A stretch of 17,753 nucleotides of DNA from the IMG/VR virus record IMGVR_UViG_3300035678_000011. One strand, 5' to 3'. The position numbers and the translations under genes are program-made. The DNA comes from a virus. The notes under the pieces are model-generated. The model saw nothing but the letters and a program-made list of their open reading frames with translations. It was not told the origin of the DNA and made no database searches. Positions 2,129 to 17,753 of the stretch are shown piece after piece; position 1 is the first letter of the stretch, and every line of letters begins with the position of its first letter.

Positions 2129-2659
2129 CTACAGCGAGATGCCGGTGTCGCCCGGGTCGGTGCTGAAGTGCTCGACGATCAGGTCGACCGGGGCGGTCGC
2201 GCTGGCGAAGAATTGGAAGGTGCCCAGCGCGGTGATCCGAATCCCAGACAGCAGCACCGACAGGAAACCGTTCGTCGCCGGGTACCAGTTCGCGGTCAGC
2301 ACGTTCTCGTCCGCGAGGGTGTTTTCGCTCTGGTAGCTGCGCATCTCCCCGATCTGGGTGCTGGCCGTGGTCGCCGCGGTGCCCGTGGTGGCGGACTGGA
2401 CCGCTCGCAACCGGGCGGCGCCCACCTCGTTGTTGACCGTCGAGTCGAGCGTTAGGTTGCTCGTGGTGATCCGGTAGGTGTGCCCGGCGATCACGGGGAT
2501 GTCGTCCAGGCGCAGATAGCCGGCTTCCGCGGTGATCGGGGTCTTGGCGGTGATCCGCCGGGCGCGCCGGATGTTGCTGTTGAGGCTGGCCGCGATGATG
2601 TCGTTGATGGTGCTGGCCACGATGATGTCTCCGGCCAGCACGTTGGCGTAGGCGGTCAT
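2129..2659 (-). CDS. Minor tail protein, candidate receptor-binding/tail-tip protein (176 aa)
   Basis: ATGA-coupled to the upstream tail gene (2656-2659) and is the last structural gene before lysis. Thr/Ser/Ala-rich beta-type sequence (MTAYANVLAGDIIVASTINDII...). Function inferred from position. Confidence 0.65.
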   Translation of the reverse strand: MTAYANVLAGDIIVASTINDIIAASLNSNIRRARRITAKTPITAEAGYLRLDDIPVIAGHTYRITTSNLTLDSTVNNEVGAARLRAVQSATTGTAATTASTQIGEMRSYQSENTLADENVLTANWYPATNGFLSVLLSGIRITALGTFQFFASATAPVDLIVEHFSTDPGDTGISL

Positions 2660-4758
2660 AGCGCGTACCTCCCAGGGGTCGCCACGTGGATTTCACTGCC
2701 GGCCGGCAGCGACTTGGTGACGCCGTTGATGTGCCGTGTCACCGTGCCGACTTGCAGGAACGGGCCGGTCCCGGTGACCGCTCCCATGGCGGTCACCATC
2801 ACCACCTCACCCGCGATCGTGACGGGGTAGGGGACGCCCGCGGTGGACCACACATCGCCCGGGTTGACGGTGCTGAACGTGATGGCGGTCGCGCTCGAGT
2901 TGTACAGCGCGGCGGTGGTGGTGCTGCCACTGTCGTAGCGGCTCGTGCCGTACACGCCCGGGTTGAACAGCTCGCCCGGCACCGTCGTGAACATGATCTT
3001 GCGGGTGATGGCGCCCACCACGTGCGTGATGCCGATGACGATCACGGGGATGAGGTCGGCTTCGTAGCCGGCCACGGTGAGCAGGTCGCCGATATCCACC
3101 GCGGACGCCGCGGCGACCAGGCCGGGGTTGGCGACCAGGTCGATGGTGACGCTGGCGTACCGGGACCGCGGCAGGGTGCCCCGCTTGAGCCACCAGCCGC
3201 AGAGCAGCGGCAGGTCGTTGTCCGGGTCGTTGACGTTGACGTCGACCTGCTGCTTGGCCTCACCCACCCCGGCCGGCGGCGGCTGCACGCTCATGGGACC
3301 CGTGGTGAGGATCATCTCGACGTCGGCGCCGTCGCGCTGGCTGACGATGATCCGGTTGTGGGTGCCCAGGTCGCCGATGATCTCCCGGAACGGGCTGGTG
3401 ATGTGCGTAGGGAAGGTGAGCGCCATGGCCGCGGTCTGGTTGTACCGGTCGGCGCGGGTGCGCATCGTCAACCCGATGACCGTCCTGGTGTCGTAGATCA
3501 TCCCGTCTTCGGTGGTGACGATCTCTTTCAGCAGGTTGAGGAAGGTGTCGGCCCGCTCGGGTCCCATCGGCCGGGTGTTGGCCGCCACACCCCGGACCGT
3601 CCAGGTCAAGCCCTTGTAGATCATGAGCCGGGCGAACCGGTCGGCGGCTTTCTCCCCCCGATATCCCAGGAACGCGGCGGTGCGGTCCGCCGAGTTGAGG
3701 TCGTCGGTCACCCCGGTCACGCCCAGCACGTGGCCGTACGTGGCGCCGCTGGAGAACGCGGTGCCGGTGATGCCCCAGATCTGCAGCGAGCTGGTCACCG
3801 CGCCCGCATAGGTGGGGGTGAACAGGGCGATGAACGCGCTGCCCTCGGTATACCAGGACACCTCAACCGACACGGTGCCCGCGGACACGGTGCATTTGAC
3901 CCGGAACAGATTCCACTGTGTCCAGTCGGTGTCCGACACGTCCACTAAGGAACTGATCACGCTCGTGCCGTCGCCCAGCTGGGTGATGACCTGCAGATTC
4001 GTGTCCGTGAAGATCAGCGCGCCGATGGTGCCGTCGGCCAGCCGCCAGTCGAAAAACTCGGAGAACGTACCGAGCACCGGGCGGGTCGGGAACTTGACCG
4101 CAAAGGACAGCTGCCACCCCGCGGTGGTCGACGCGACCGCCTTGAAATAGCCGGTCATGAATCCCGGGTCGGGCACGTCGATCAGCGGTTCGGAGCCCGG
4201 CGGGCGCTCCTGCGACTCGAAGTTGACCGCCTGCAGCACCCCGCCGTGCGCGCCGTCGACCGGGCTGAACAGCTCCTTGACGCCGCGCTTGTCCTCCATC
4301 GGGAAGTAGCCGACCGACGACGCGTAGGCCGAGTTCAGCCGGTACATCGGTGAGCGCAGCGGTTCGGTCCACTGCGCGATCCGGGCGAGCAGCCCGTACG
4401 CCTCGAGATCCACCCAGGCGCGGCCGAGACCGGCCGCCCGGTCGAAGTCGATGGTGCGGTCCGGCCGCCACTCGGTGGCCTCCACCACGGCGAGAATGTC
4501 GGTGCCGACGGACAGCCGGGCCGGGGTGTTCCGGCCGGCCTTGCCGTACAGCGGACTCTCCGGGTTGGAGGGCCGGAACTTGTCGGTGGCGTTGTTGAAC
4601 GCCAGCATCCCGGACGCGGCGCGCAGCGCGGCGCCCTCCTCGCCCTGCCCGCGGGTCACCCGGATCTCGTCGGCGGAGAACAGCTCGGTTTGCGCGGCGA
4701 CGGTGTTCCACACCCCGTCGTAGAACAGCTCCACTTTCGCGTCCTGCAAGGTGGCCAT
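2656..4758 (-). CDS. Large minor tail protein (700 aa), distal-tail/baseplate-hub-like
   Basis: True start taken as ATG 4758 (MATLQDAKVELFYDGVWNTV...), sharing 1 nt with the tape-measure stop (TGATG). The N-terminus resembles siphovirus distal tail proteins (..IRVTRGQGEEG..NPESPLYGKAGRNTPARL). The upstream 200 codons of track ORF 2656..5358 overlap the tape measure gene and are Arg-rich junk. Confidence 0.8.
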   Translation of the reverse strand: MATLQDAKVELFYDGVWNTVAAQTELFSADEIRVTRGQGEEGAALRAASGMLAFNNATDKFRPSNPESPLYGKAGRNTPARLSVGTDILAVVEATEWRPDRTIDFDRAAGLGRAWVDLEAYGLLARIAQWTEPLRSPMYRLNSAYASSVGYFPMEDKRGVKELFSPVDGAHGGVLQAVNFESQERPPGSEPLIDVPDPGFMTGYFKAVASTTAGWQLSFAVKFPTRPVLGTFSEFFDWRLADGTIGALIFTDTNLQVITQLGDGTSVISSLVDVSDTDWTQWNLFRVKCTVSAGTVSVEVSWYTEGSAFIALFTPTYAGAVTSSLQIWGITGTAFSSGATYGHVLGVTGVTDDLNSADRTAAFLGYRGEKAADRFARLMIYKGLTWTVRGVAANTRPMGPERADTFLNLLKEIVTTEDGMIYDTRTVIGLTMRTRADRYNQTAAMALTFPTHITSPFREIIGDLGTHNRIIVSQRDGADVEMILTTGPMSVQPPPAGVGEAKQQVDVNVNDPDNDLPLLCGWWLKRGTLPRSRYASVTIDLVANPGLVAAASAVDIGDLLTVAGYEADLIPVIVIGITHVVGAITRKIMFTTVPGELFNPGVYGTSRYDSGSTTTAALYNSSATAITFSTVNPGDVWSTAGVPYPVTIAGEVVMVTAMGAVTGTGPFLQVGTVTRHINGVTKSLPAGSEIHVATPGRYAL

Positions 4759-5741
4759 CAGCGCTTGCCGCCCAGCACGACGTCGGTGGTGCCGCGGCGC
4801 CGCACGGCCTTGCTCACCGCTTCGACCAGGGCGTCGTCGAACGCGGAGCCGGCGGAGCGGATCTCGAGCACCACCGTGCCGCCGCCGCGGGACGCCATCG
4901 AGCCGATCTTCTCGCCCGCCTGCAGCACCGCCACGGTCGGGGTGCCGGGCACACCGCCGACGACGCCTCCCGCGTGGAAGGTGGGCAGCTTGGGTACCGA
5001 GATCGAGTTGCCGCCGATGCCGGGCACCCAGCCGGGCACCGTCCAGGACAGCCGGCCGATCGTGTTGTTCCACAGTTTCGCCACGGCGTTGAAGCCGATC
5101 CGGAACGGCAGCGTGATGAAGTTGGCGATCTTGCCGAATGCGTCGCCGATCCAGCCCGGGACCTTCTTCAGCCAGTCCCACACATTCGACGCGGATTTCT
5201 TGATCCATCCCCAGGCGGCACCCCACGCCTTGGAGAACCAGTCGGTCTTCTTCGCGATCAGCACAATGATCACGATCAGGGCGACGATCGCGACGACTAT
5301 CCACGTGATCGGCGACGCGAACATGGCTGTGTTCATCAGCCATTGCGCGGCCGTCCACACCCGGGCGGCGCCCGCGGCGACCTTCTGCGCGGCCGCCTGC
5401 GCGAGGGTGGCCACCTTGGTCTGTGCCAGGGACATGATCAGCGGCGCCAGGCCACCGGCCAGGTCCGCCCAGCCTTGAATGTAGGCGACGATGCCCTGCT
5501 TACCGGGGCCTTTCATGATCGTCGCGGTGCCGTCGATGACGTCGTGGACGCCGATGAGGTTGCGCTCGGAGTTGTCCGCGGCCTCACCCACCCGGTTCAA
5601 CCCGCCGGTGTGTCCGTCTATTTCGCGGGTGGCGCCGCCGACCTTGTCGGACATGCCCTTAGCGGACGCTCCGACCCGGTCGAACGAGTCTTCGATCGGC
5701 TTGCTCTCACCCGCAAACGTGAGGGTTACCTGGTTGGGCAT
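4758..5741 (-). CDS. Tape measure protein (short, 327 aa)
   Basis: It sits between the chaperone/gp10-like genes and the tail-tip genes. It has a central hydrophobic segment (ASPITWIVVAIVALIVIIVLIA) and Trp-rich repeats (KAWGAAWGWIKK, NVWDWLKKVPGWIGDAFGKI). ATG 5741 shares 1 nt with the upstream stop. Confidence 0.85.
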   Translation of the reverse strand: MPNQVTLTFAGESKPIEDSFDRVGASAKGMSDKVGGATREIDGHTGGLNRVGEAADNSERNLIGVHDVIDGTATIMKGPGKQGIVAYIQGWADLAGGLAPLIMSLAQTKVATLAQAAAQKVAAGAARVWTAAQWLMNTAMFASPITWIVVAIVALIVIIVLIAKKTDWFSKAWGAAWGWIKKSASNVWDWLKKVPGWIGDAFGKIANFITLPFRIGFNAVAKLWNNTIGRLSWTVPGWVPGIGGNSISVPKLPTFHAGGVVGGVPGTPTVAVLQAGEKIGSMASRGGGTVVLEIRSAGSAFDDALVEAVSKAVRRRGTTDVVLGGKR

Positions 5742-6151: not shown

Positions 6152-6635
6152 TCACGCACCCGCTTTCAAACGCTCTAATTCCTCGGCCTGCATCTTCCGC
6201 GAATAGAACCGCGACCAGAGCACGAACTCGTCGTTGTCCATGATCTCGATCATCTGCCGGCGGGTCATGCCCAGCTTCTGCGCAAGGTAGAACTCGAATT
6301 CGAGGTCAGGATTGTTCTCCAGCGCCAGCCACGCCGCTTTTCCCGGCGCCCTTCTTGAGCCCCGACAGTTCGGCGACCGCGTCGGACACGGCGACCAGGT
6401 CGCCCGCGTCGGCGACACCCGCCCACACGGCGACGTCGTCACGGGTCAGCACCGGGTTGGTCATGCCGGTCGCGATGATGAAGTTGTCCCGGTCGGACAG
6501 CGACTCCATCTCCTGCATCTCGATCACCTCGTCCCGGGTCAGCGCCCGGATCGCCACGGTGGAACCGTCGAGCAGGGTGGCGGTGCCCTTGCCGGTCTTG
6601 CGGGCCAGGATCTGCGAGCGGGTCAGATGAGCCAT
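6152..6635 (-). CDS. Tail assembly chaperone, frameshifted long (G-T-like) product, about 160 aa
   Basis: A second frame stays open from 6442 to TGA 6152-6154 and reads ..GKAAWLALENNPDLEFEFYLAQKLGMTRRQMIEIMDNDEFVLWSRFYSRKMQAEELERLKAGA. It is +1 (equivalently -2) relative to the G frame. The two frames can be joined at GGGAAAAG (6344..6337). Confidence 0.55.
6306..6635 (-). CDS. Tail assembly chaperone, short (G-like) product, 109 aa
   Basis: Lies directly downstream of the major tail gene. SD AGGGGGAAA is about 9 nt before ATG 6635. Sequence: ..VAIRALTRDEVIEMQEM...AVSDAVAELSGLKKGAGK. An overlapping extension frame is present (see 6152..6635). Confidence 0.75.
   Translation of the reverse strand: MAHLTRSQILARKTGKGTATLLDGSTVAIRALTRDEVIEMQEMESLSDRDNFIIATGMTNPVLTRDDVAVWAGVADAGDLVAVSDAVAELSGLKKGAGKSGVAGAGEQS
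6337..6344 (-). promoter_or_regulatory. Candidate recoding (slippery) site GGGAAAAG
   Basis: The G frame reads GCC GGG AAA AGC and the extension frame reads CCG GGA AAA GCG. tRNA-Lys on AAA can re-pair on the next AAA one base 3' (+1). This is the only homopolymeric run in the 6306-6442 two-frame overlap. Confidence 0.45.
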
Positions 6636-8687: not shown

Positions 8688-11600
8688 TTACACCGGGTCG
8701 TAGACCAGCTCGCGGGTACCGGCGAAGTCGGTCACGCCGAACGCCTTGTAACCCCAGATGCCCATGTCCACCCAGGCCACCCGCCAGGTGATGTCGATGC
8801 GCTGCGGAGCGGACGCCCAGCCGCACACCTTCTCCGGGTCGAACATGTAGCTGCTGGCCGCGTTGATCGAGGTGGCCGCGGTGGCCCACGCGGGGATCCA
8901 GAGCTTGCCGTGCGCGTCGAGCGAGTCGTAGCGGGGGTCGGCGGTGCCGACGGCGTTCTGTGCCCCGATCGACGGGTACAGCCGGCGGCCGTTGGAGTCC
9001 TTGGCCTTGACCATGGCCGAGTACAGGTCGATCTGGGTGTACACGTTGCGGAACCGGTCACCGCCGCGGATGAACTTCAGCGGGATCAGCCCGGTCGCGA
9101 TCGCCTGATCCAGGGCCGAGTCGACCGCCGCGGTGGTGATCGTGATGTCGGTCATCGACGCGGCCACCGCGACCAGCTGGGCCACCGCGAACGCTTCCAG
9201 GGCCTCGAAGTAGCCGCGGGTCATCTGCCGGTAGATCAGCCCACTCATCTGCGGGTTGCCGCCCTGGTCGAACGCCTCCCGGGTGATCTCCACCTTGCCC
9301 GACACGGGCGACGGGGTGATGGTCTGCGCGGTCGCGGTGAACGTGCCCGGGGTCGGCTCGGTGCCGGTGACGTGGTCGGCGACCAGGCCGGAGCTCGAGT
9401 TGAACTTGGGGATGACGAACGGGGTAACCGCGTCGAGGGTGCCCTTGTTGATCGCGTCCCAGATCGGGTACTGGAATTCCATCTGGTCGACGTACATGTC
9501 CGGCCGGTTCTGCGGGTAGTTGAGGTTCACGACGTTGGCCGGGGTGATCGCGAACTGCTGCGGGTCCGGGTCGGCGTACTGGTCGCGCAGGAACCCTTCG
9601 GCCCGGTCGCGGGAGCCCTGGTCGCCGCCGCCGCCCTCACGCCACCCGGCGAGCAGGTCGGCGCTGAAATCGTGGGTGCCCCGGCGCAGGTTGCCGGTCC
9701 GGTCGAACCGGTACGGGGAAGGCTCGCGGACCTGCGCTGGCCCGTGGTGCGGGTTGACGACCAACGGCGGCTGCGGGGCGCCGTTGGCGTCCAGCGGGAT
9801 GGGCGTCACGCCAGCCTGCTGCGCGGCGACCCACGCCTGGAATTGCTCGAACGTGGCGCCCGCGCCGGGGTTCGGCACGGCCGGCGGCACCGCGGCCGGC
9901 GGGGCGGTCTGGCGCAACTGCGCGATGAACGTCTGGCACGCGATGTTGGCTGCGTGCTTGTGGCCGCAATGCTGGCATGGGTCCACGGTGGTGCCTCCTG
10001 TCAGGTCCGCGGCCACCTTGGTCACGCGGGCGTTGTCGAACGCGGGCAGATGGGTCGAGCTGGTCTCACGCCACGTCGCCCGGACCACGTCGTAGACCTG
10101 GTCGTCTTCGTTGAAAACGACGTCGCCGTCTTCGGGGTACATGCTGAAATCGACGCCGACCGACAGCCCGGTGTACATGCCGTGCGCTGCGTCGTAGAGC
10201 AGCCCGTCGCGCTGGGCTTTCTGCGGGGAGCCTTCCGGGCCGTCCAGGATCGACAGCTCGACGGTCGGGCCAGCCGCCGAATCGGTGATCGACTTGTGCA
10301 TACCGACCGGGTCACCGTGGTTCTTGAGCACCGGCATCCGGTCCGGCGACGAGTACTCCAGGCTGCCCGGCTTGAACCGGTATTTGATGCCGAACTTCGT
10401 CGCGACCTGGTTGTAGGGCACGGCCAGGCCGGTGATCGTGCGGGCGCCCTCGTCGACGGTCGGCGCGGCCACCGGCGCACCGTCGAACTCCGACCAGTCG
10501 AAGGTCATCGTTTGGGGCGCGTCGAAGGTGACCCGCGGCCGGGCCTTGCTCTGCTGGCCGGCCGCCGCTTCCTTGGCCTCGCCCGCGGCGGCGCGGGTGA
10601 CCACGTCGGCGGGAATGCCGGCCTGCTCACCGATCCACTGTTCGTCCACCACACCCATGTCCTGTAACGCCTTCCAGTAGGTGGTCTGGGCGACCGGGTC
10701 GGGTTTGAGGTAGTCGGACAGGTCGAACCGGGGTGCGTAGCCGCGCCGGGTCACATCGCCCATCGCCAGGCGATCGGTGAGCGCGGACATGTACGGCGCG
10801 TACATCCGGTTGATCTTGTCCCGGCGGCGCGCGTCCTCGTTCTGATAGGTGCGCGACGTGGTGGACACCCCCAGGTCCTCCGGGTCGACGCCGAGCCCGT
10901 TCGCGATCGCGATCGTCACCTGCGACTGCAGCTCGGACAGGGTCAAGTCTTTCGGCGACGGCGACGTCACGTCGGAGCGCTGCACCGTCGACGGGATCCA
11001 GCCGAACGGCCGGTACTGGCGCATCGCCCCGTACTCGGCTAGGAACAGGTCCACCTCGTCGTCGTCGAGCGGGTCAACGTCGGAGGCCGGATTGTCGGTG
11101 AAGAACTCGCGCAGCGCCGGGTTCTCGGCGTACATCTCGGTCAGCCGGTCCAGTTTGATCGCGATCCGGATGGCCCGCGCGTTGGCTGCCAGGATGCCCG
11201 GGTTCGGGCTGTCGAAGCGGATCATCAACGCCGACGGGAACGGCTGCCAACCCTTGCCGTCGCAGTGGTCGATCCACACGTACCGCTTGTCCTCGGCGGC
11301 CACGCCGGTGCGGTCCAGCGGCGGGATGCCGGGCAGGTTCGTGTTCGGCGACCGGCCGGGCTTGGTCAGCGACACCTTCCGCGGGTCGATGCGCCGCACG
11401 CTGGCCGGGTAGTTGTCGAAATCTTGGCCGGTGACCTGCCACCAGGCGATGTGCTCGAACGCCAAGTCTTCGATCGTCATGGCCATGTGCACCACGTTCG
11501 GCACGTCCGGGTCGAACTGCCGAAATAGGGCCGAGTCGACCACCGCAGGCCCGCGGTACAGACGCAGCGGCAGCGTGGAGATCGAGCAGATTTCGTTGCG

Positions 11601-11801
11601 GCCGCGTTGCACCGCCGCCACCGAGAGGGCCGCCTCGCGGGAGACGACGGTCATCTCCCCGTTCTTCATCGCGGCCAGCACCATGTCGACTGGGCGCGGG
11701 GCGGTGTCGAAGGTGTGCGTCGGCTCGAGGTCGAGGGTGATCATCCGTGGCGGGGTGACGAGATCCCGCATGACCTGCACTGCTGTGCGCACCCATCCCA
11801 T
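8688..11801 (-). CDS. Portal - S78 prohead protease - HK97-fold major capsid protein fusion ORF (1037 aa)
   Basis: N-terminal ~400 aa are portal-like (..RGRNEICSISTLPLRLYR.., ..TSRTYQNEDARRRDKINRMYAPY..). Residues ~430-610 are HK97-type protease (ITGLAVPYNQ.., VLKNHGDPVG, YTGLSVGVDF, ETSSTHLPAFDNA). The C-terminal ~300 aa are HK97-family MCP (..PIWDAINKGTLDAVTPFVIPKF.., ..VEITREAFDQGGNPQ.., ..WGYKAFGVTD..). I saw no stop or frame break in 3,114 nt. Confidence 0.85.
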   Translation of the reverse strand: MGWVRTAVQVMRDLVTPPRMITLDLEPTHTFDTAPRPVDMVLAAMKNGEMTVVSREAALSVAAVQRGRNEICSISTLPLRLYRGPAVVDSALFRQFDPDVPNVVHMAMTIEDLAFEHIAWWQVTGQDFDNYPASVRRIDPRKVSLTKPGRSPNTNLPGIPPLDRTGVAAEDKRYVWIDHCDGKGWQPFPSALMIRFDSPNPGILAANARAIRIAIKLDRLTEMYAENPALREFFTDNPASDVDPLDDDEVDLFLAEYGAMRQYRPFGWIPSTVQRSDVTSPSPKDLTLSELQSQVTIAIANGLGVDPEDLGVSTTSRTYQNEDARRRDKINRMYAPYMSALTDRLAMGDVTRRGYAPRFDLSDYLKPDPVAQTTYWKALQDMGVVDEQWIGEQAGIPADVVTRAAAGEAKEAAAGQQSKARPRVTFDAPQTMTFDWSEFDGAPVAAPTVDEGARTITGLAVPYNQVATKFGIKYRFKPGSLEYSSPDRMPVLKNHGDPVGMHKSITDSAAGPTVELSILDGPEGSPQKAQRDGLLYDAAHGMYTGLSVGVDFSMYPEDGDVVFNEDDQVYDVVRATWRETSSTHLPAFDNARVTKVAADLTGGTTVDPCQHCGHKHAANIACQTFIAQLRQTAPPAAVPPAVPNPGAGATFEQFQAWVAAQQAGVTPIPLDANGAPQPPLVVNPHHGPAQVREPSPYRFDRTGNLRRGTHDFSADLLAGWREGGGGDQGSRDRAEGFLRDQYADPDPQQFAITPANVVNLNYPQNRPDMYVDQMEFQYPIWDAINKGTLDAVTPFVIPKFNSSSGLVADHVTGTEPTPGTFTATAQTITPSPVSGKVEITREAFDQGGNPQMSGLIYRQMTRGYFEALEAFAVAQLVAVAASMTDITITTAAVDSALDQAIATGLIPLKFIRGGDRFRNVYTQIDLYSAMVKAKDSNGRRLYPSIGAQNAVGTADPRYDSLDAHGKLWIPAWATAATSINAASSYMFDPEKVCGWASAPQRIDITWRVAWVDMGIWGYKAFGVTDFAGTRELVYDPV
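9984..9999 (-). promoter_or_regulatory. Internal ribosome-binding site plus in-frame GTG inside the fusion ORF
   Basis: The minus strand reads ACAGGAGGCACCACCGTGGAC: AGGAGG (9999..9994), a 7-nt spacer, then GTG (9986..9984). The GTG is in frame with the stop at 8688 (1,299 nt). It falls just after the protease domain. Confidence 0.35.
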
Positions 11802-11829
11802 GATCGGGAGTGTACGACGATCGGACAGA

Positions 11830-13413
11830 TTATCCGCTCACGCCGGTGCGGACAGTCCGGACCACCTTCCGCGGGGTCGGCATGGTCCGGGCCAGATGCA
11901 CCGCCCCGGCCGCCGCGTACATCGCGTCGACGTGCCCGGCGCCGCGGCGGGTGAACACCCACCGGTCACCGGTCCACAGTTTCTCGGCGCCCTCGGCCTG
12001 GGCGTCGAGCAGGTCTTGCCCGGAGTGCGCGATCATCACCGCCGACACCCGCTCGGCGAGCCCCATCACCACCGCGGGCACCTCGGCCGCCTGCAGCTCC
12101 TTCACGGTGACGCCGCGCGGCGGCCACGCTGCCCGGCCGCCCTTGGCCCGCCGGTCCCGCAGCGTGGCGTCCAACGTCGCCGCGGGGCCTCCCGGAAACC
12201 AGCCGAACACCTTCGGGCGTACGCGGGTGATCCAGCCGGGCAGGTCGGCCAGGCACCGGGCCAGGGCGTCCGGGCCATCCCACGAGCGGACCGCTTCCAC
12301 CCGGGTCCGCCCGTCGGCCATCATGGCCGCCGCCGTGAGGGTGGCGTGTTGCTGGTCGGGGGACACGTCGATGCACGCGGCCAGCCGGGTCCGCTCGTCC
12401 AGGTCCAGCGGTCCCGGGTCGCGGCAGCCTTTCCAGCCGGCCGGGCTGATCGCCGGGTCCAGCTGGTCGACCGCCATGCACATGATCTCCGTCAGGAACC
12501 CGGTCAGTTCCTCCGGGTCGGCGCCGGGCTTGGCCACCCGCCGGGCCGCCGCGATGATCGTCTCCGGGTCCATGCGCCGCCCGTACTGCGGGTTGGCCGC
12601 GGCGTGGCCGGCGGTGTCCATCGGGTGCGTGCCGGGCGCCGCCGACCACTCGAAGATGCCGACCGGGCGCTCGAGCGCCAGGCTCGCGATCGCGTCGGCG
12701 CGCAACGAGTTGAGCACCACCGAGCGGGCGTCGCCCATGTTCGTGATGTAGACAACCTGCGCGCGCGGGCGCGCATTCATGGCGTTGTACGCGGCGTGGT
12801 ACGCCTCCCACGTGTGTTGCTCACGGAGCTCGTCGCCGATCGCCCGGTCGATGCTCTTGCCGCGCCCGCCCTTGCGGTCGGCGGCGCCGATCTTGTACCG
12901 GCAGCGGTCGACGGTCGCGACCACCTGCTGGCCGTTGCCGATCCGCTTGTGCTTCGGGAACCGCGGCATGAGCGCAACCAGGACAGGCGTCGCTTCGGCG
13001 AGTTCGACCGCGGCCTCCCACGCTTCCTTCGCCTGCTCGAGGTTCGTGCTCGTCCCGAACACCAGCGGCCACCGCTCGATGAACAGCCAGAACAGGGCGA
13101 GCACCTTGCAGAGGTGGGTCTTGCCGTTCTGCCTGGCCACGATCACCAGGACCTGTCGGAACCGCGGCCGGCCGTCGGCGAGCATCTCGCCGAGGTGGAT
13201 CACCAGCCACTGCTGCCACGGGTCGAGTGGCTGGCCGAGGATCACCGCGGCGAAGTGGATCACCGCGTAGCCGTAGCTAGTCCTCGGTGTCAGCCGCCGT
13301 AACGGCCGGGTCCACAGCCGCGGCGTAATCGAGCCCAGTGGTAGGGGCGCCTGCAGCGGCGTCGGCTCGGAGTCGCTCGAGCTCAGCAGTCGCAGGGTCG
13401 ACAACCGTCTCAC
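11830..13413 (-). CDS. terL: Terminase large subunit (527 aa)
   Basis: Walker A-like VIVARQNGKT. The N-terminal ..ITPRLWTRPLRRLTPRTSYGYAVIHFA..LGQPLDPWQQW is typical of Terminase_1-type large subunits. GTG 13413 is preceded by GGGAG 5 nt upstream. The start is uncertain (TTG 13404 is an alternative). Confidence 0.9.
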   Translation of the reverse strand: MRRLSTLRLLSSSDSEPTPLQAPLPLGSITPRLWTRPLRRLTPRTSYGYAVIHFAAVILGQPLDPWQQWLVIHLGEMLADGRPRFRQVLVIVARQNGKTHLCKVLALFWLFIERWPLVFGTSTNLEQAKEAWEAAVELAEATPVLVALMPRFPKHKRIGNGQQVVATVDRCRYKIGAADRKGGRGKSIDRAIGDELREQHTWEAYHAAYNAMNARPRAQVVYITNMGDARSVVLNSLRADAIASLALERPVGIFEWSAAPGTHPMDTAGHAAANPQYGRRMDPETIIAAARRVAKPGADPEELTGFLTEIMCMAVDQLDPAISPAGWKGCRDPGPLDLDERTRLAACIDVSPDQQHATLTAAAMMADGRTRVEAVRSWDGPDALARCLADLPGWITRVRPKVFGWFPGGPAATLDATLRDRRAKGGRAAWPPRGVTVKELQAAEVPAVVMGLAERVSAVMIAHSGQDLLDAQAEGAEKLWTGDRWVFTRRGAGHVDAMYAAAGAVHLARTMPTPRKVVRTVRTGVSG

Positions 13414-13678
13414 CCCCGCTCCCGGTCACCGCGGGCCGCGCCGACGGCGACATGCCCAACCGGTCAAGCATCGCCTCGAGGCGCGCGCCCACGCGCGCAA
13501 TCTCCAGGATCTTGCGCGCGTGTTCCGCCCCGTCCTCGGCTGCCTCACCGTTCAACAGATCGTCGAAACAGTCGTCTAGGGCGTCGGCGTACCGCTTGGC
13601 GAGCGCGATCGTCGCCCGGTCGCGGGGGAGCACCGGTGTGGTCTCCAGCGACTGCCGGAGATCACCGCCGATGGTCAC
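13277..13678 (-). CDS. terS: Terminase small subunit (about 133 aa)
   Basis: Lies immediately upstream of terL. Sequence: ..IALAKRYADALDDCFDDLL..ARVGARLEAMLDRLGMSPSARPAV, an L-G-x-S/T-P-S-x-R motif typical of P27-type small terminases. I take GTG 13678 as the start because it overlaps the upstream TGA (GTGA). Track start 13717 would overlap the methyltransferase gene. Confidence 0.65.
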   Translation of the reverse strand: MTIGGDLRQSLETTPVLPRDRATIALAKRYADALDDCFDDLLNGEAAEDGAEHARKILEIARVGARLEAMLDRLGMSPSARPAVTGSGGETVVDPATAELERLRADAAAGAPTTGLDYAAAVDPAVTAADTED

Positions 13679-14400
13679 CCGTCGCGCCCAGCTCGAGGTG
13701 ACACATACGCGCGCCACGCCTGCCCGACGATGCCGGAACCGGGGTACAGGTCGTCCAGGGTGTCGCCAGCCGTCGCGCCGACCAGGTCGAAGATCCAGCG
13801 ACAGAACGCGGCCGGCTTCGCACCGATCACCCGCGACGGCAGCGTGATCATGGCGGACACGCCGTGCTGCAAGACGTCGACGCGTCGCGCCGCGCCGGCA
13901 CCGCGGCGGAACGCGACGGGTACGTAGATCACCGGCTCCCAGGCGTTGACCGCGTTCCTAGCCGTCGCGTGCGGCCGGGCGCCACGGATCCACGCCGCGA
14001 CGCGTACCGGCAGGCCTTGCGCGACAGCTAGCGCCAGCACGGCCGGCAACGCCCGCGCGGACGTCGACAGCGCCCATCCGTCGTAGGTGGCCAGCCGCGA
14101 CAGCAGCGCGGCGTGATCCACCTCGCCCGCGTAGTCCGGGTGCCCGCGGTACAGATGCGCGTTCCCGGGGTACGGCGGGTCGGCGTACGCCAGCCGTCGC
14201 GTGGATCCAGGCGACGCGTCGTGCGCCGCGGCCGCGGGCCCACGCGACGCGTAGCGGGTGACGCGATGCCGGGCCTGTCGGCACGACTGCGAGCAGGTCA
14301 AGGCGTCGCGTCGCGCCCGGGCGGGGATCGGACCGGAGCACCAGCGGCATTGGCGTTCCGTCGCGGGCGCCGGCGGGAGCGACGGGTCGGCGACGGTCAC
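13675..14400 (-). CDS. DNA methyltransferase (beta-class N6-A/N4-C type) with N-terminal zinc-ribbon
   Basis: Motif IV is YADPPYPG. Motif I-like DDLYPGSGIVGQA lies near the C-terminus (order IV...I). The N-terminus CRWCSGPI..ALTCSQSCRQARHR is a 4-Cys ribbon. Confidence 0.8.
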   Translation of the reverse strand: MTVADPSLPPAPATERQCRWCSGPIPARARRDALTCSQSCRQARHRVTRYASRGPAAAAHDASPGSTRRLAYADPPYPGNAHLYRGHPDYAGEVDHAALLSRLATYDGWALSTSARALPAVLALAVAQGLPVRVAAWIRGARPHATARNAVNAWEPVIYVPVAFRRGAGAARRVDVLQHGVSAMITLPSRVIGAKPAAFCRWIFDLVGATAGDTLDDLYPGSGIVGQAWRAYVSPRAGRDG

Positions 14401-14672
14401 CCGCGGCCGGCCGAATTTCGGGGCACCGGGTCCGCGGCGGCCGGCTGTTGCTCGAGCTGGGATCGATCAGAGTCGATCGCTACAGGTCGTGACGGGTCCG
14501 TGAAAATCGGCGTGGATCGGTCCGGGGGGAGAGAAAAACAGGGCGCGGGTGTCCGCCCACCTCCTGTGCCGGGAAAAAACGCGGCCTGCGCGCGGGCCAA
14601 CGCCTCGAGCCCGCCCGTCGCGATGTGCTGATGCGCGACGCCAGGTCCGGGACAGTTCGGGCAGTCGTTCAC
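14397..14672 (-). CDS. Doubtful ORF (91 codons); only the 5' third looks coding (VNDCPNCPGPGVAHQH..)
   Basis: GTGA overlaps at both ends. From about 14590 down to 14400, third-position G/C drops and homopolymer runs appear, so the 3' two-thirds may be non-coding. Confidence 0.3.
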   Translation of the reverse strand: MNDCPNCPGPGVAHQHIATGGLEALARAQAAFFPGTGGGRTPAPCFSLPPDRSTPIFTDPSRPVAIDSDRSQLEQQPAAADPVPRNSAGRG

Positions 14673-14866
14673 CGCTGGAAGTCCACGCCGTGGTAGTCAA
14701 CGTGCGGGCCTGCGTGCCCCTCTGCCTTGCGGCAGTGCAACGTCCCGCCCGATCCGGGCACCTCGTGCGTTGCGTCGCAGTAGCCGTCTGCCTGCTCGGG
14801 TGGCTCGTGCATTCGCCACGCGCTGCAGGGCCAGATCTCGCCGCACTCGGGGCAGGCGCGGGTCAT
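14669..14866 (-). CDS. Small Cys/His-rich protein (65 aa)
   Basis: ATG 14866 overlaps the upstream stop (ATGA). Sequence: MTRACPECGEIWPCSAWRMHEPPEQADGYCDATHEVPGSGGTLHCRKAEGHAGPHVDYHGVDFQR. Third positions are strongly G/C. The first 19 codons of track ORF 14669..14923 are discarded. Confidence 0.65.
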   Translation of the reverse strand: MTRACPECGEIWPCSAWRMHEPPEQADGYCDATHEVPGSGGTLHCRKAEGHAGPHVDYHGVDFQR

Positions 14867-15033
14867 CGTTTGAACGGCTTCAGCGAGTAGCAGAGCAGGG
14901 CGCGGCAGCGGGTGCGCTTGCACCGCGTCTCCCAGTGGCCGAGCGCGTTGGGTGTGGACGCACCCCAGGAGTGGAAGCCCTGCCGGCAGAGCCAGGGCCT
15001 GCGCTCGGTCGGCTCACCGTCGAGCTTAATCAT
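14863..15033 (-). CDS. Small Cys-rich basic protein (56 aa)
   Basis: ATG 15033 is preceded by AAGGTGGTGA. Sequence: MIKLDGEPTERRPWLCRQGFHSWGASTPNALGHWETRCKRTRCRALLCYSLKPFKR. Third positions are G/C-rich. This is the 3' part of track ORF 14863..15306. Confidence 0.6.
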   Translation of the reverse strand: MIKLDGEPTERRPWLCRQGFHSWGASTPNALGHWETRCKRTRCRALLCYSLKPFKR

Positions 15034-15035
15034 GC

Positions 15036-15317
15036 TCACCACCTTGTCACGGGCACGGCCGGCGGATCGGCCGTGCCGCTCGGGTCGCCCAGATGCAGGT
15101 TGCACGGGGCGCACGCTGCCTGTAGATGGTCGGGCTGGTCGGTCTTGCAGCCGTGGCACCCGGTCTTGCCGTGCATGTGGTGCACGTGCATCGGGTCGGA
15201 TTGCCCGACGCACGTGCCCTCGATCTTGAGCTGACAGGCGTGGCCATCGCGCTGCAGCACGAGAGCGCGGCGCCGCCGCCACGCTCTCGTGCTGCCTGCT
15301 GCCCACCCTGCGCTCAT
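15036..15317 (-). CDS. HNH endonuclease (93 aa)
   Basis: Sequence: ..RRRALVLQRDGHACQLKIEGTCVG..MHVHHMHGKTGCHGC..DHLQAACAPCNLHLG. This is an HNH/zinc-finger core. It lies upstream of the terminase genes, as in HNH-dependent cos packaging modules. Confidence 0.85.
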   Translation of the reverse strand: MSAGWAAGSTRAWRRRRALVLQRDGHACQLKIEGTCVGQSDPMHVHHMHGKTGCHGCKTDQPDHLQAACAPCNLHLGDPSGTADPPAVPVTRW

Positions 15318-15418
15318 GTACTCAGTGTGGGCAGTCCGGGCCGCCGGATGCCGTGCCGCTCGAGCCAGGCCACGGCGGCGCGGATCCCTGGCTCGGTGCC
15401 GTCGCTGATCAGCTTCAT
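15314..15418 (-). CDS. Tentative mini-protein (34 aa)
   Basis: ATG 15418 and stop 15314-15316 both sit in ATGA overlaps with neighbouring genes. Sequence: MKLISDGTEPGIRAAVAWLERHGIRRPGLPTLST. Third positions are G/C-rich. Confidence 0.45.
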   Translation of the reverse strand: MKLISDGTEPGIRAAVAWLERHGIRRPGLPTLST

Positions 15419-15762
15419 GAGCGGTGCGCCCCGTCGTGACCGCGCTCCCGGCTGCACCTGGTCGTCACCAGCTTGCCGCTGCGCGAGAACGGCATCCCGC
15501 ACGGCGCCATCATCGGCGAGGCGCGCAGCGCGCTCGAGTTCAGCACCTCGGTCCGGGCCGCCTCCGCCTCAGGCGTGCTGTCCAGGATCGGCAGCTCATG
15601 CGCGCTCTGATTCCAGGCCACCTGCGCGCCCTGCTGCACGGCGTTGGTCATGTCCAGCTCAGCCAGGGCGCCAGCCAGCGCACGAGCCAAGATCCAGTTG
15701 TGGTCGATTACCGCGCGTTTGGTCCGCTCTGCGAGCAGCATGTACAGGGTTGAATCGGGCAT
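15415..15762 (-). CDS. Hypothetical protein (115 aa), first gene of the late coupled operon
   Basis: ATG 15762 is preceded by GAGAGGTGA 5-6 nt upstream. Sequence: MPDSTLYMLLAERTKRAVIDHNWILARALAGALAELDMTNAVQQGAQVAWNQ... Third positions are nearly all G/C. The upstream 153 codons of track ORF 15415..16221 lack that bias. Confidence 0.65.
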   Translation of the reverse strand: MPDSTLYMLLAERTKRAVIDHNWILARALAGALAELDMTNAVQQGAQVAWNQSAHELPILDSTPEAEAARTEVLNSSALRASPMMAPCGMPFSRSGKLVTTRCSRERGHDGAHRS

Positions 15763-16376
15763 TTGATCACCTCTCGATGGGAGCGGTTGGTGGATGGTGC
15801 ACCCCACCCCTGCAAGACCAATTTCCGCACGCAGCGGTGGTCCGGCAGGGGTGGTGAGAGCTCTCGACGGTCGGGCAGTCCGGACGTACGCAGAGCCCAC
15901 GCACGTCGCATTACTGACGAGCCAGGGCGGGGTATGTCGGCGGCTCTCACCGCGCCGGCCGCACCCTGGCCGTGGCTTGGTCGCAAATCGCGGCCAGGGT
16001 GCGGAGCCTTCCGGCGCGGACCGCTCTGCGCGGTGCACGTTGGGCCTGACGTGTTCCGCTGCACCCCTCGCGAGGTGCGCAACACGTGCTCGGCCGCCGA
16101 CTCCAATACGCGTGATTCGTGCATTCACAGGGACGCGCGGCAAAGGGACGTTGTGCGTTCGCTTCCCAGCGATCACGCGGTTGATAAGCCTGCTCCGCGT
16201 TTCGCGCCCAACGGATTGCAAGTCCGTTTTTCGCCATATGAGGATGATCTACGGCGATGCGGGCGGCAGACAGTTTGTCCGGTAGCCTGACACCTGGATT
16301 TGTTTTGGCGCTGTCATCGTGAACGCTCGGCCCCGGGTTTGCAAGGCCCCGGCCGAGCGTTTCGCGTTTTACGCTC
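15763..16376. other. 614-nt non-coding, hairpin-rich region (candidate ori / packaging site / ncRNA locus)
   Basis: No frame on either strand shows the G/C third-position bias seen in every other gene, and all track ORFs here are Arg-rich. It contains a 12-bp-stem hairpin (15961-15972/15991-16002), palindromes gagagctctc (15856-15865) and gtccggac, and repeated motifs (see findings). Confidence 0.6.
16322..16361. terminator. Strong hairpin directly downstream of the Cys-rich gene; U-tract only on the plus strand
   Basis: aacgctcggcc (16322-16332) pairs with ggccgagcgtt (16351-16361), an 11-bp stem, with a further 3 bp possible. On the plus strand it is followed by tcgcgtttta. On the minus strand it lies 16 nt after the stop at 16377. 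Confidence 0.55.
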
Positions 16377-16559
16377 TCAGCGAACATGTGCGTTGTGCGA
16401 CCGGCAGTACCGGGTCGCGGTGCAGTGCTCGCAGATGGTGGCGACCAGCCACACCCGCGGTCGGGTGCAGCCGGCGGCCGGGTCGTGCCGGTTGCTGCAG
16501 TCGCCGCACACCGGCCAGCCGAGCGAGCGTTGGTCGCGCTTGCCGAACTGTCTAGGCAC
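16377..16559 (-). CDS. Small Cys-rich protein (60 aa) with CxxC...CxxCx5C spacing (WhiB-like flavour, truncated)
   Basis: Sequence: VPRQFGKRDQRSLGWPVCGDCSNRHDPAAGCTRPRVWLVATICEHCTATRYCRSHNAHVR. GTG 16559 overlaps the HTH gene end by 8 nt. Third positions are strongly G/C. Confidence 0.6.
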   Translation of the reverse strand: MPRQFGKRDQRSLGWPVCGDCSNRHDPAAGCTRPRVWLVATICEHCTATRYCRSHNAHVR

Positions 16560-16761
16560 GGCCGGCCACCACCGCGCGTGCCTCCCGTAGCCGGATCACC
16601 TCGGCGCGCCAGAACACGCGGATGTTGCCGATCTTGTAGTCGCCGAGCGAGCCGCGGGCCACCATGTCGTAGAGCGTGGCCCGGGACACCCCGAGCATCG
16701 CCGCGGTCTGTTTCGCGTCGCACCATGCGTCCGGGTTGGGTAGATCAAGTGTTGCTTGCAT
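16552..16761 (-). CDS. Helix-turn-helix DNA-binding protein, MerR/excisionase (HTH_17)-like, 69 aa
   Basis: Start ATG 16761 (MQATLDLPNPDAWCDAKQTAAMLGVSRATLYDMVARGSLGDYKIGNIRVFWRAEVIRLRE..) is the classic Xis/AlpA-type winged HTH pattern. The upstream 74 codons of track ORF 16552..16983 overlap the divergent gene and are discarded. Confidence 0.8.
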   Translation of the reverse strand: MQATLDLPNPDAWCDAKQTAAMLGVSRATLYDMVARGSLGDYKIGNIRVFWRAEVIRLREARAVVAGRA

Positions 16762-16764
16762 ACG

Positions 16765-16792
16765 CACATCTTGCGGTCGACCGGACGATGTG
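16765..16792. promoter_or_regulatory. 28-bp imperfect palindrome (candidate operator) in the 45-bp divergent intergenic region
   Basis: cacatcttgCGGTCGACCGgacgatgtg: 12 of 14 half-site positions are self-complementary. The core is the perfect 10-bp palindrome cggtcgaccg (16774-16783). Confidence 0.5.
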
Positions 16793-16796
16793 TCAA
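16768..16796 (-). promoter_or_regulatory. Candidate promoter of the HTH gene (leaderless-type)
   Basis: The minus strand has TTGACA (16796..16791), a 17-nt spacer, CAAGAT (16773..16768), then 6 nt to ATG 16761. A mirror-image TTGCGG (16771-16776) / CAACCT (16794-16799) pair sits 7 nt before ATG 16807 on the plus strand. Confidence 0.35.
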
Positions 16797-16806
16797 CCTG
16801 GTCGGC

Positions 16807-17238
16807 ATGACGCACGCCGAAATGAGAGACCGTCCCGTAGACCTGACTACCGAAGAGGCCGTCCGGAGCCCGGAGCGCCGCAGGCGCATCGGCATGGCCC
16901 ACGACGAAGCAAGGCATGACGCCGCAGCGCGGGAGCTCGAGCAGCGCATCCCGGGCCGCGCGCAGATCATCGCCGCGGTCCACGCCTACGCCGACTTCCT
17001 AGCCGAGCACCCCGAAATCCCCGCGCCGAGCACGGTCACGGGCACTTTCCACCAGCACGAGCCGCGCGAGGATGCCGGCCGGGTTGCCTACGTCGAGCGG
17101 TACGCCGACGCTCAGGAGATCGAGCTCGACCGCGGTGACACCTCGATGTGGGCCCGGCTGCCCATCGCCGTGAAGGTCCTGCACGGGGTCGAGATCACCC
17201 ACGTCGTGCAGACGCACCACGGCCGTACGCCGCTGTGA
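16807..17238 (+). CDS. Hypothetical protein (143 aa), first gene of plus-strand module
   Basis: First ATG after the divergent region, with no SD (consistent with a leaderless mRNA). G/C third-position bias runs through to TGA 17236-17238. No family recognised. The start could instead be ATG 16822. Confidence 0.65.
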   Translation: MTHAEMRDRPVDLTTEEAVRSPERRRRIGMAHDEARHDAAARELEQRIPGRAQIIAAVHAYADFLAEHPEIPAPSTVTGTFHQHEPREDAGRVAYVERYADAQEIELDRGDTSMWARLPIAVKVLHGVEITHVVQTHHGRTPL

Positions 17239-17693
17239 GCGGTGAGCACCGGGCGCCCGGACAGCTGTTCCGGGCGCCGGGCGGCCGGGCGGGCCAGCCG
17301 GACGGGCGGCACACCGCGGAATACGTCGCTCGCAACGGCGTCGGCATCGTCGGCATGTACCCCGCGGGGGCGGCCGGCCGGGTGTCGCTCGCCGAGCACC
17401 TCGCCGACCCGAACCCGGACCGCGGCGGCCGATTCGATCCCCTCCCAGGAAGGCAGGACATGACCCATCATCGTCCCGAATATGTGCCGGTCGAGGCGCA
17501 TTACGTCAACCCGCCCGGGGCGCCGCCGCGCGCCCGCCGGGCTGTGATCACCACCGCGGCGCTGCTGGTCGCGATCGCCGCGGCCGCGGTCACGTTCACG
17601 CTGTGCACGGGCTGGCTGGCCAGCCAGCCGCCGCAGCCCGCGATCATGGTCACGCCCAGCACGTACGGGCCGCCGCCGACCGGGGGCCGATGA
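17235..17693 (+). CDS. Membrane-anchored hypothetical protein (152 aa; alternative start ATG 17460 giving 77 aa)
   Basis: GTG 17235-17237 overlaps the upstream TGA (GTGA), and the frame keeps G/C-rich third positions from there. The alternative ATG 17460 has a GGAAGG SD 6 nt upstream. One TM helix (AVITTAALLVAIAAAAVTFTLCTGWLA). The stop overlaps the next ATG (ATGA at 17690-17693). Confidence 0.6.
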   Translation: MSGEHRAPGQLFRAPGGRAGQPDGRHTAEYVARNGVGIVGMYPAGAAGRVSLAEHLADPNPDRGGRFDPLPGRQDMTHHRPEYVPVEAHYVNPPGAPPRARRAVITTAALLVAIAAAAVTFTLCTGWLASQPPQPAIMVTPSTYGPPPTGGR

Positions 17694-17753
17694 TGGCCGA
17701 GCCGATGGACTTCACCGTGGTCGGCCCGGACGGCGACGGCGACACCTGGTTTG
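17627..17753. repeat. Exact 127-bp terminal direct repeat, right copy (identical to 1..127)
   Basis: See left copy. Bases 17690..17753 are a truncated duplicate of the start of CDS 64..423. Confidence 0.97.

Follow-up and report, generated by a model that had tools for sequence, protein, structure and literature searches.

The virus sequence IMGVR_UViG_3300035678_000011 (17,753 nucleotides (nt), hereafter the window, by which the whole stretch of DNA analysed is meant) carries a 1037-codon open reading frame (ORF) whose product is predicted to join a portal, a prohead protease and a major capsid protein (MCP) in a single chain, with what is very probably a nested gene for the capsid part inside it. 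The ORF runs from ATG to TAA on the minus strand and spans positions 8688-11801 exactly, without interruption; the plus-strand translation of the same interval has stops. Its length and integrity, pointed out in an earlier note made from the sequence, are confirmed here, the strand being a refinement. Since long ORFs come cheaply by chance at the GC content of the window (~70%), the coding status of the frame was tested. The GC content at third codon positions (GC3) stays between 0.86 and 0.98 in the ORF frame across every stretch of 50 codons, a codon-position scan gave no sign of a switch of frame, and the codon-position pattern is of the coding type and uniform along the whole length. The first 127 nt of the window recur exactly, as a direct repeat, at its other end (1-127 = 17627-17753), so that the assembly, of 17,626 bp, is complete and either circular or terminally redundant. 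As a gene, the 1037-codon ORF is real, and it belongs to a complete siphovirus-type actinobacterial phage genome of ~17.6 kb.

In the family alignment (51 sequences) and the AlphaFold2 (AF2) model, the product falls into three conserved blocks, each joined to the next by a variable, gap-rich linker that is predicted to be disordered. The model is confident at amino acids (aa) ~55-400 and ~430-583, with predicted local distance difference test (pLDDT) values mostly of 80-95 over aa 55-400. The first block matches Pfam Phage_portal (PF04860) at aa 73-385 with 36.1 bits (E=5.4e-9; profile positions 13-311 of 321), just under the gathering threshold (GA) of 39.1; full-length relatives score 68.7-111.8 bits. 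When the family profile was compared with the PDB, it retrieved portals only, with the HK97-family portal 3kdr at E=2e-9. A Foldseek search with the AF2 model gave portals for all of its top 50 matches (E~1e-12), the template modelling (TM) scores being 0.68-0.70 for 3kdr and 0.65 for the HK97 portal in situ (8cez). As modelled, the N-terminal ~400 aa has the HK97-type portal fold.

The middle segment is assigned to the S78 prohead proteases by virtue of its relatives, of tblastn matches and of its fold. The His motif VLKNHGD (H495) and the Ser motif TGLSVG (S547) are present, and both residues, presumably the equivalents of the catalytic residues of HK97 gp4, are invariant in the 51 sequences. 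In relatives aligned over their full length, Peptidase_S78 (PF04586; GA 21) is matched with 36.2 bits (L035) and 25.5 bits (L037). The L035 ORF contains all three domains above GA (Phage_portal, 92.6 bits; Phage_capsid_4, 45.7 bits, besides the protease), and L037 scores 111.8 bits with Phage_portal. In tblastn, aa 448-601 of the window product match "major capsid and protease fusion protein" entries of Microbacterium and Arthrobacter phages; in Noelani gp5 the match covers aa ~16-149, a part that scores 54.7 bits as Peptidase_S78. The C-terminal block matches Phage_capsid_4 (PF25209; GA 27) with 37.4 bits in the full ORF and 40.2 bits in the nested product (see below), covering positions 17-258 of 262, and PHROG 2263, "major head protein", is matched over aa 448-942 (E=1.7e-20). 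The earlier note had proposed just these assignments: a portal-like part of ~400 aa, which the Pfam, 3kdr and Foldseek results bear out; an S78/HK97-type protease with KNHGD and GLSVG motifs; and a C-terminal MCP. The order in which it expected the profiles stands, but the direct matches were obtained only in part, with the portal of the window falling just short of GA and its protease segment giving none. The region that it called a ~120-aa linker exists; rather than a plain linker, it appears to be the N-terminal, scaffold-like part of the nested gene, and it carries a Cys-Cys-His-Cys (CCHC) knuckle.

The fused organization is widespread among relatives. A search of a large protein database gave 725 matches; the best 120 of the 725 are mostly ~1000 aa long, with ~100% query coverage and 55-77% identity, and most of their contigs measure 16.5-18.1 kb. 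DNA of 50 related loci was retrieved, 29 of which cover the ORF region. In 29/29, and at identities as low as 37-40%, the frame stays open from the N-terminus of the portal through to the stop of the capsid part. These 29 independent loci come from different metagenomes and from three cultured genomes (Micromonospora globispora, M. mirobrigensis and Actinoplanes sp.); thus, no frameshift or assembly error lies behind the fusion, which had been presented as genuine unless a frameshift or stop turned out to split it. An exhaustive HMMER search of 1.84 billion cluster representatives (50% identity) gave 882 matches, the best 149 of which were classed by domains: 64 have portal, protease and capsid (912-1103 aa), 44 protease and capsid, 16 capsid only, 12 portal only, and 9 portal and protease (several of the latter being truncated triples). 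To the question of whether relatives split these genes, the answer from the best 149 of the 882 representatives, and from loci L055 and L056 (see below), is that they do so in every possible way. No ORF of this kind was found in any isolated phage among 50,697 records, and at E<=1e-5 these records contain nothing that matches the portal part or the capsid part of the window.

Within the ORF, just past the protease, lies a conserved translation start signal. The start and Shine-Dalgarno (SD) scan was made on a codon alignment of 24 distinct ORFs, and the residues in the start column were counted in 119 family proteins. An unbiased scan of the whole ORF returned a single positionally conserved GGAGG, present in 20/24 sequences. 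The column of codon 606 reads ATG or GTG in 20/24, after ACA GGA GG[A/C/G], and a strong SD is combined with an in-frame ATG or GTG at this site in 19/24; the next best site reaches 8, and is forced by an invariant Pro-Glu-Asp. The corresponding residue is Met in 79 proteins, Val in 39 and Leu in 1. The SD is written with the rarest Gly codon of the family genes, GGA (6.6% overall), which makes up a mean of 3.8% and at most 9% at 34 other conserved Gly columns, as against 20/20 and 14/21 at the two Gly codons of the SD. Pairing between SD and antiSD averages -11.2 kcal/mol at the internal start and -3.3 kcal/mol at the 5' start in the 24 sequences. In divergent members the peptide at the SD is altered (Glu-Gly, Arg-Glu-Asp), and a purine-rich SD and the start are kept. 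On truncated contig L054, where the upstream frame is open, the gene caller chose the internal SD-ATG. Taken together, these sequence patterns indicate that the ORF very probably contains a nested in-frame gene with its own initiation signal, selected against codon bias, and with a predicted start at codon 606.

Two other positions were considered for an internal start and rejected. Met432, in the portal/protease linker, gives way to L/Y/F/V/H in relatives and is thus not conserved, and an SD with a start near aa 393-398 is found in only 3/24 sequences. Met382 is encoded by ATG in 19/24; the purine runs before it are weak, ill-spaced and partly forced by Trp-Lys, and it lies inside the portal crown, which makes it an unlikely start.

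Loci L055 (4633-7619, on a contig of 18.3 kb) and L056 (3577-6563), from two contigs of one relative, have the same domains in the same order as the window, and the same CCHC start of the capsid gene, in two genes instead of one. TerL is followed by a 586-aa portal-protease gene and this by a separate 403-aa scaffold-capsid gene. The portal-protease product ends in "...PAFDDARVSAVAASAY" and TGA; then comes "GAAAGGCTCACCTG", and then the ATG of the 403-aa gene ("MPCALCNTIH..."). The junction has the form TGA-GAAAGG-N8-ATG, that is, a TGA stop and a 14-nt spacer between the genes. The 403-aa protein of L055 aligns with residues 3-432 of the nested product of the window (46% identity, E=2e-120), so that in the split genes the capsid gene begins at the residue homologous to codon 606. 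The portal-protease gene of this relative has an SD-type start in place of the TACACT-N7-ATG layout seen in the window (see below). Another candidate for a free-standing capsid gene, P0243, was discarded: its contig is truncated and the upstream frame is still open, hence it is not a split.

The CCHC motif with which the nested product opens (C609-x2-C612-x3-H616-x5-C622) spans 14 residues, as does the retroviral CCHC zinc knuckle, and has no Pfam match. It is also found in the capsid gene of the split relative ("MPCALCNTIH...C"). By strict pattern, about half of the triple-fusion representatives and few of the protease-capsid representatives have it. A metal-binding knuckle is unusual for a scaffold- or delta-like region.

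A comparable start may occur beyond the immediate family. A Met is found 5-32 residues after the S78 C-terminal motif in 92-93% of the triple and protease-capsid representatives, versus ~40% of control windows, and is preceded in both classes by residues with purine-rich codons (G/E/K; P0183-P0267 among the protease-capsid representatives). At the DNA level, L057 has GAAGGGAA-N8-ATG just past the S78 domain, and Noelani gp5 (L053, Microbacterium phage Noelani, 3771-5357) has GAGAGGA-N10-ATG at aa 166, right after the protease. A nested capsid start may therefore be general for protease-capsid "fusion" genes.

The capsid segment also differs from the rest of the ORF in codon usage. Its GC3 is 0.96-0.98, versus ~0.88-0.94 in the portal and protease segments, and its observed/expected synonymous-codon conservation is ~1.1-1.16, versus ~0.9-1.0. 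Both differences are slight, and would fit stronger translational selection on a more highly expressed nested part.

The start of the full-length ORF is of a different kind. The ATG at 11801 is separated from the TerL stop by 28 nt, in which there is no SD. Instead, a hexamer of the type TACACT, TATCAT or TATGAT precedes the conserved ATG GGA TGG by 6-7 nt (in a few cases 8-9) in ~17-20 of 24 loci, and the TACACT layout is unique within the window. Leaderless transcripts of actinobacteria are laid out in this way, with a TANNNT hexamer at such a distance and no SD. The full-length ORF is thus probably translated from a leaderless start, TACACT being the candidate -10 element of a leaderless late transcript. 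The hexamer lies at the TerL/portal junction, with homologous sites in L003-L036; the -35 region is not conserved. A scan for consensus sigma-70 promoters and terminators gave one internal promoter-like match (11250-11221) and, on the other strand, a single weak site resembling a terminator; TACACT escaped it because a matching -35 is absent.

Table 1. Coordinates of the features discussed (window numbering)
Feature	Position	Strand	Basis or remark
Full-length ORF: portal-linker-S78 protease-CCHC/scaffold-like region-HK97-type MCP (domains as predicted)	8688..11801	-	ORF, GC3, one frame kept in relatives
Full-length ATG start, conserved ATG GGA TGG	11799..11801	-	Joint Genome Institute (JGI) gene call starts at Met11 instead
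TACACT, TANNNT -10-like hexamer; candidate promoter of a leaderless mRNA	11809..11814	-	7 nt upstream of ATG
Portal domain, predicted HK97-family fold, aa ~50-395	10617..11654	-	Pfam; 3kdr profile match; Foldseek; pLDDT mostly 80-95
Linker 1, Pro/Ala-rich, variable, aa ~396-439	10485..10616	-	Predicted disordered; without conserved internal start
S78 prohead serine protease (predicted), aa ~440-600	10002..10484	-	H495 (10317-10319), S547 (10161-10163); pLDDT 80-93
Internal SD AGGAGG (predicted), codons ACA GGA GGC (Thr-Gly-Gly)	9994..9999	-	GGAGG at this column in 20/24
Internal in-frame start GTG (predicted), codon 606, 7 nt after the SD	9984..9986	-	Conserved ATG/GTG; start in split relative
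Nested in-frame gene (predicted), 432-aa scaffold-like and MCP precursor	8688..9986	-	Phage_capsid_4, 40.2 bits; 46% identity to the L055 gene
Putative zinc knuckle C609-x2-C612-x3-H616-x5-C622, N-terminus of nested product	9936..9977	-	Invariant
Pro-rich variable stretch and conserved, partly helical region, aa ~623-760	9522..9935	-	Proposed delta/scaffold-like part, presumably removed on maturation
MCP core, aa 782-1028, Pfam Phage_capsid_4	8718..9458	-	Profile match
Large terminase (TerL), immediately upstream of the fusion ORF	11830..13413	-	phrog_9, E=9e-59
Small terminase (TerS)	13277..13717	-	Pfam Terminase_6, 34.8 bits (GA 27)

The genes around the fusion ORF make up a complete small siphovirus head and tail module (Table 1). 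The ORF is followed by a 161-aa gene of unknown function, a head-tail adaptor, a tail terminator and a 136-aa major tail protein, and the module continues with a chaperone, Neck1, a 327-aa tape measure and a 701-aa tail protein. A scan of the window genes found no other able to supply a portal, a protease or an MCP. Two overlapping ORFs on the minus strand, of 109 aa (6306-6635, with a weak tail-assembly-chaperone match) and 96 aa (6152-6442), look like the usual chaperone pair with a programmed frameshift, upstream of the tape measure. The tape measure itself (4758-5741, minus strand) is very short, and its best PHROG match is to an endolysin-type family; the 701-aa tail protein (2656-4761, minus strand) matches phrog_5313 and has a phosphodiesterase-like segment. 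A 93-aa Cys/His-rich ORF (15036-15317, minus strand; ...HVHHMHGK...CHGC...CAPCN...H...) resembles an HNH endonuclease and has no Pfam match at E<=0.01. The window ORFs that were scanned (13700-17753 and 1-2100) include none recognisable as an integrase. The element is integrated beside an integrase and a replication helicase in two annotated loci (M. globispora and Actinoplanes). In the relatives integrated in Actinoplanes and Micromonospora, the integrase is of the tyrosine type and the helicase is DnaB or AAA_25; the M. globispora element is flanked by two DUF72 genes (289 and 278 aa), which may represent a duplicated or split target.

We propose that the locus is a real fusion gene containing a nested gene, which would yield a minor full-length chain and a major scaffold-MCP product started at codon 606; we put the probability of this reading at about 0.8. 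Ribosomes entering at AGGAGG/GTG would make the 432-aa scaffold-MCP precursor alone, and this would form the bulk of the shell. Two products with a common C-terminus would thereby be made at unequal rates, namely the minor portal-protease-scaffold-MCP chain and the major scaffold-MCP. If the capsid is of triangulation number T=4, as the size of the genome suggests, ~235 MCP copies would be needed, as opposed to 12 portals. With the bulk of the MCP coming from the nested gene, the problem of 12 versus hundreds of subunits would be removed. The earlier note, which had raised this problem, offered internal initiation, processing or an unusual assembly route as ways out; the evidence favours the first, at codon 606, past the protease, and not at the portal/protease boundary.

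In terms of topology, a full-length chain is plausible. The interior of the capsid is the side to which portals turn their C-termini (the crown) and MCPs their N-termini, and prohead proteases and scaffold or delta regions face it too. The full-length chain could therefore occupy the portal vertex, where it would carry 12 proteases into the capsid and link the portal to subunits of the shell; the protease would then presumably cut the disordered linkers and strip off the scaffold region. In T4, packaging has been reported not to be blocked when the portal is tethered to the shell by engineering (reviewed in PMC3012670). It seems conceivable, and we advance it only tentatively, that the full-length chain is an assembly device: a dodecameric portal ring with 12 protease-scaffold-capsid arms might nucleate the shell, ensure a single portal vertex and dose 12 proteases, with the bulk of the subunits coming from the nested gene.

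Several points weigh against the reading proposed here. Initiation at codon 606 is deduced from sequence alone, as are the relative amounts of the two products. The scan for synonymous conservation gave no broad peak and no extended element, its observed/expected ratio reaching a maximum of ~1.16, and the signal is limited to ~3 codons. Most genes of the window are without a strong SD, hence SD strength is not the sole determinant of initiation in the window. The TACACT motif is missing from 4-5 divergent loci. As to the domains, the portal score lies just below GA and the protease segment of the window, taken alone, gives no Pfam match, so that relatives, tblastn and fold had to be relied on; the model of the capsid part is of low confidence (pLDDT 30-80 in the full AF2 model and a mean of 38.9 for the nested product alone). 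Finally, the existence of split relatives implies that the covalent link from portal-protease to MCP is dispensable for this type of head, and the fused state could be adaptive or nearly neutral.

The alternatives fare considerably worse. In a pure polyprotein, only the 1037-aa chain would be made and would cut itself into parts at 1:1:1, surplus portal and protease being wasted or degraded, and the SD-like site would have no part in initiation. The lack of a stop inside the ORF in any relative agrees with such a scheme, as do the linkers, which are disordered and variable as expected of cleavable tethers; moreover, protease-MCP "capsid polyproteins", that of PAJU2 among them, have been proposed to undergo autocatalytic cleavage (PMC8306868). 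However, this scheme leaves unexplained why the rarest Gly codon should be fixed as GGAGG 4-8 nt before a start-compatible codon at one site only, and why the capsid gene of the split relative should start at that exact residue; it would also waste ~20 portal and 20 protease domains for each portal domain used. We consider it improbable. Still less probable is that the internal SD and start are the decaying relic of a once separate capsid gene, or an SD-like pause site between domains, rather than a working start. Split forms do exist, and the fused form probably arose via loss of a stop codon. Yet the proteins are 37-77% identical and GGA is not retained at synonymous sites elsewhere, so that a relic without function should have decayed, whereas L035 and L037, the deepest members, still have both SD and start; a pause site, for its part, would not need a start codon at a fixed spacing of 4-8 nt in 119/119 proteins.

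A programmed frameshift near the protease/capsid boundary, by which most ribosomes would terminate to give a portal-protease and few would read through to the capsid, could draw on stops in the +1 frame, which many sequences have 5-6 and 12-13 codons ahead of the internal start. These stops are, however, by-products of conserved Val-Thr and Leu-Thr codons; an in-phase slippery heptamer occurs in 0/24 sequences, suppression at synonymous sites is not seen there, and we regard this mechanism as very unlikely. That a sequencing or assembly indel, or a pseudogene, joined separate genes found no support (the JGI call, 10 codons shorter at the 5' end, differs in the choice of start codon only) and is refuted by the same open frame in 29 independent loci, three of them cultured genomes, and in 64 cluster representatives, as well as by the codon-position GC pattern, uniform along the ORF.

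The preferred reading, a minor fusion chain with an abundant nested capsid product, has consequences beyond this locus. The apparent paradox of stoichiometry would be avoided through a nested in-frame start, and the pattern at the protein level suggests the same trick in the widely annotated "major capsid and protease fusion" genes that are now read as simple polyproteins. The placement of a single portal at one vertex and the loading of the protease are long-standing questions, for which a large natural family with portal and protease (and, in most near relatives, capsid) in one chain gives a direct genetic handle; split and fused forms among close relatives can be swapped experimentally. If the chain is indeed an assembly device, it would represent a natural, hard-wired form of portal-nucleated capsid assembly, and delivery of the protease tethered to the portal, if true, would be a previously undescribed way of packaging a maturation protease, one shared with the split portal-protease relatives. 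In public records the ~1000-aa proteins go by the names "phage portal protein", "phage head maturation protease" or "hypothetical", and a capsid gene is not called; as a result, detection or classification of viruses by capsid markers will miss or misread this widespread group of ~17-kb elements in metagenomes and in Micromonosporaceae.

The closest known counterparts are the protease-MCP fusions of small actinophages. As the earlier note had stated, such fusions are on record: they have been described in Arthrobacter clusters AM, AU and AN, Rhodococcus RRH1, Microbacterium cluster EE, PAJU2 and Nocturne116 (PMC5513430, PMC8306868), and the portal is separate in all of them. Like the window, those exemplified by Noelani gp5 (PHROG 2263) have S78 followed in frame by Phage_capsid_4, in genomes of 15-17 kb with the order terminase, portal, protease/capsid, adaptor, terminator and major tail protein, and the proteases are 35% identical. 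The portal of Noelani, in contrast, is a separate gene whose stop overlaps the start of the fusion (ATGA), whereas in the window it lies in the same frame without a stop. To our knowledge, a nested start has not been reported for the small-actinophage fusions. In full-text literature searches, neither a natural fusion of portal and protease nor one of portal, protease and capsid came to light, in keeping with the statement of the earlier note that it knew of none that includes the portal; the portal-protease fusion alone, as in L055/L056, also appears to be undescribed. In HK97, the fold families predicted for the window product are encoded by three separate genes, for the gp3 portal, the gp4 protease and the gp5 capsid protein with its delta domain. 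HK97 and the window are alike in having no separate scaffold gene, the N-terminal extension of the MCP being the likely equivalent of a scaffold; the extension in the window differs in opening with the invariant CCHC motif and a Pro-rich stretch.

For the nested arrangement itself there are two precedents. In phage lambda, the protease and scaffold genes C and Nu3 are nested in frame. The nearest parallel to the logic proposed here comes from herpesviruses, where UL26 and UL26.5 are in-frame overlapping genes with a common 3' end and the protease lies in the unique 5' part (PMC4498786); the scaffold-protease fusion of lambda is cited in PMC5513430. As in the scheme proposed for the window, a short, independently initiated ORF shares its C-terminus with a long ORF that bears the protease, and the minor, protease-carrying product co-assembles with the abundant short one and then frees itself by cutting. 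The systems differ in that UL26.5 has its own promoter, whereas the evidence in the window is for an internal ribosome-binding site. In both precedents, furthermore, the shared part is scaffold only, portal and capsid protein being separate; in the window the shared part would comprise a scaffold-like region and the whole capsid protein, and the long form adds the portal. What is new here is that the fusion takes in the portal and that the proposed nested part comprises the capsid protein in full; the components and the logic of the nested gene are already known.

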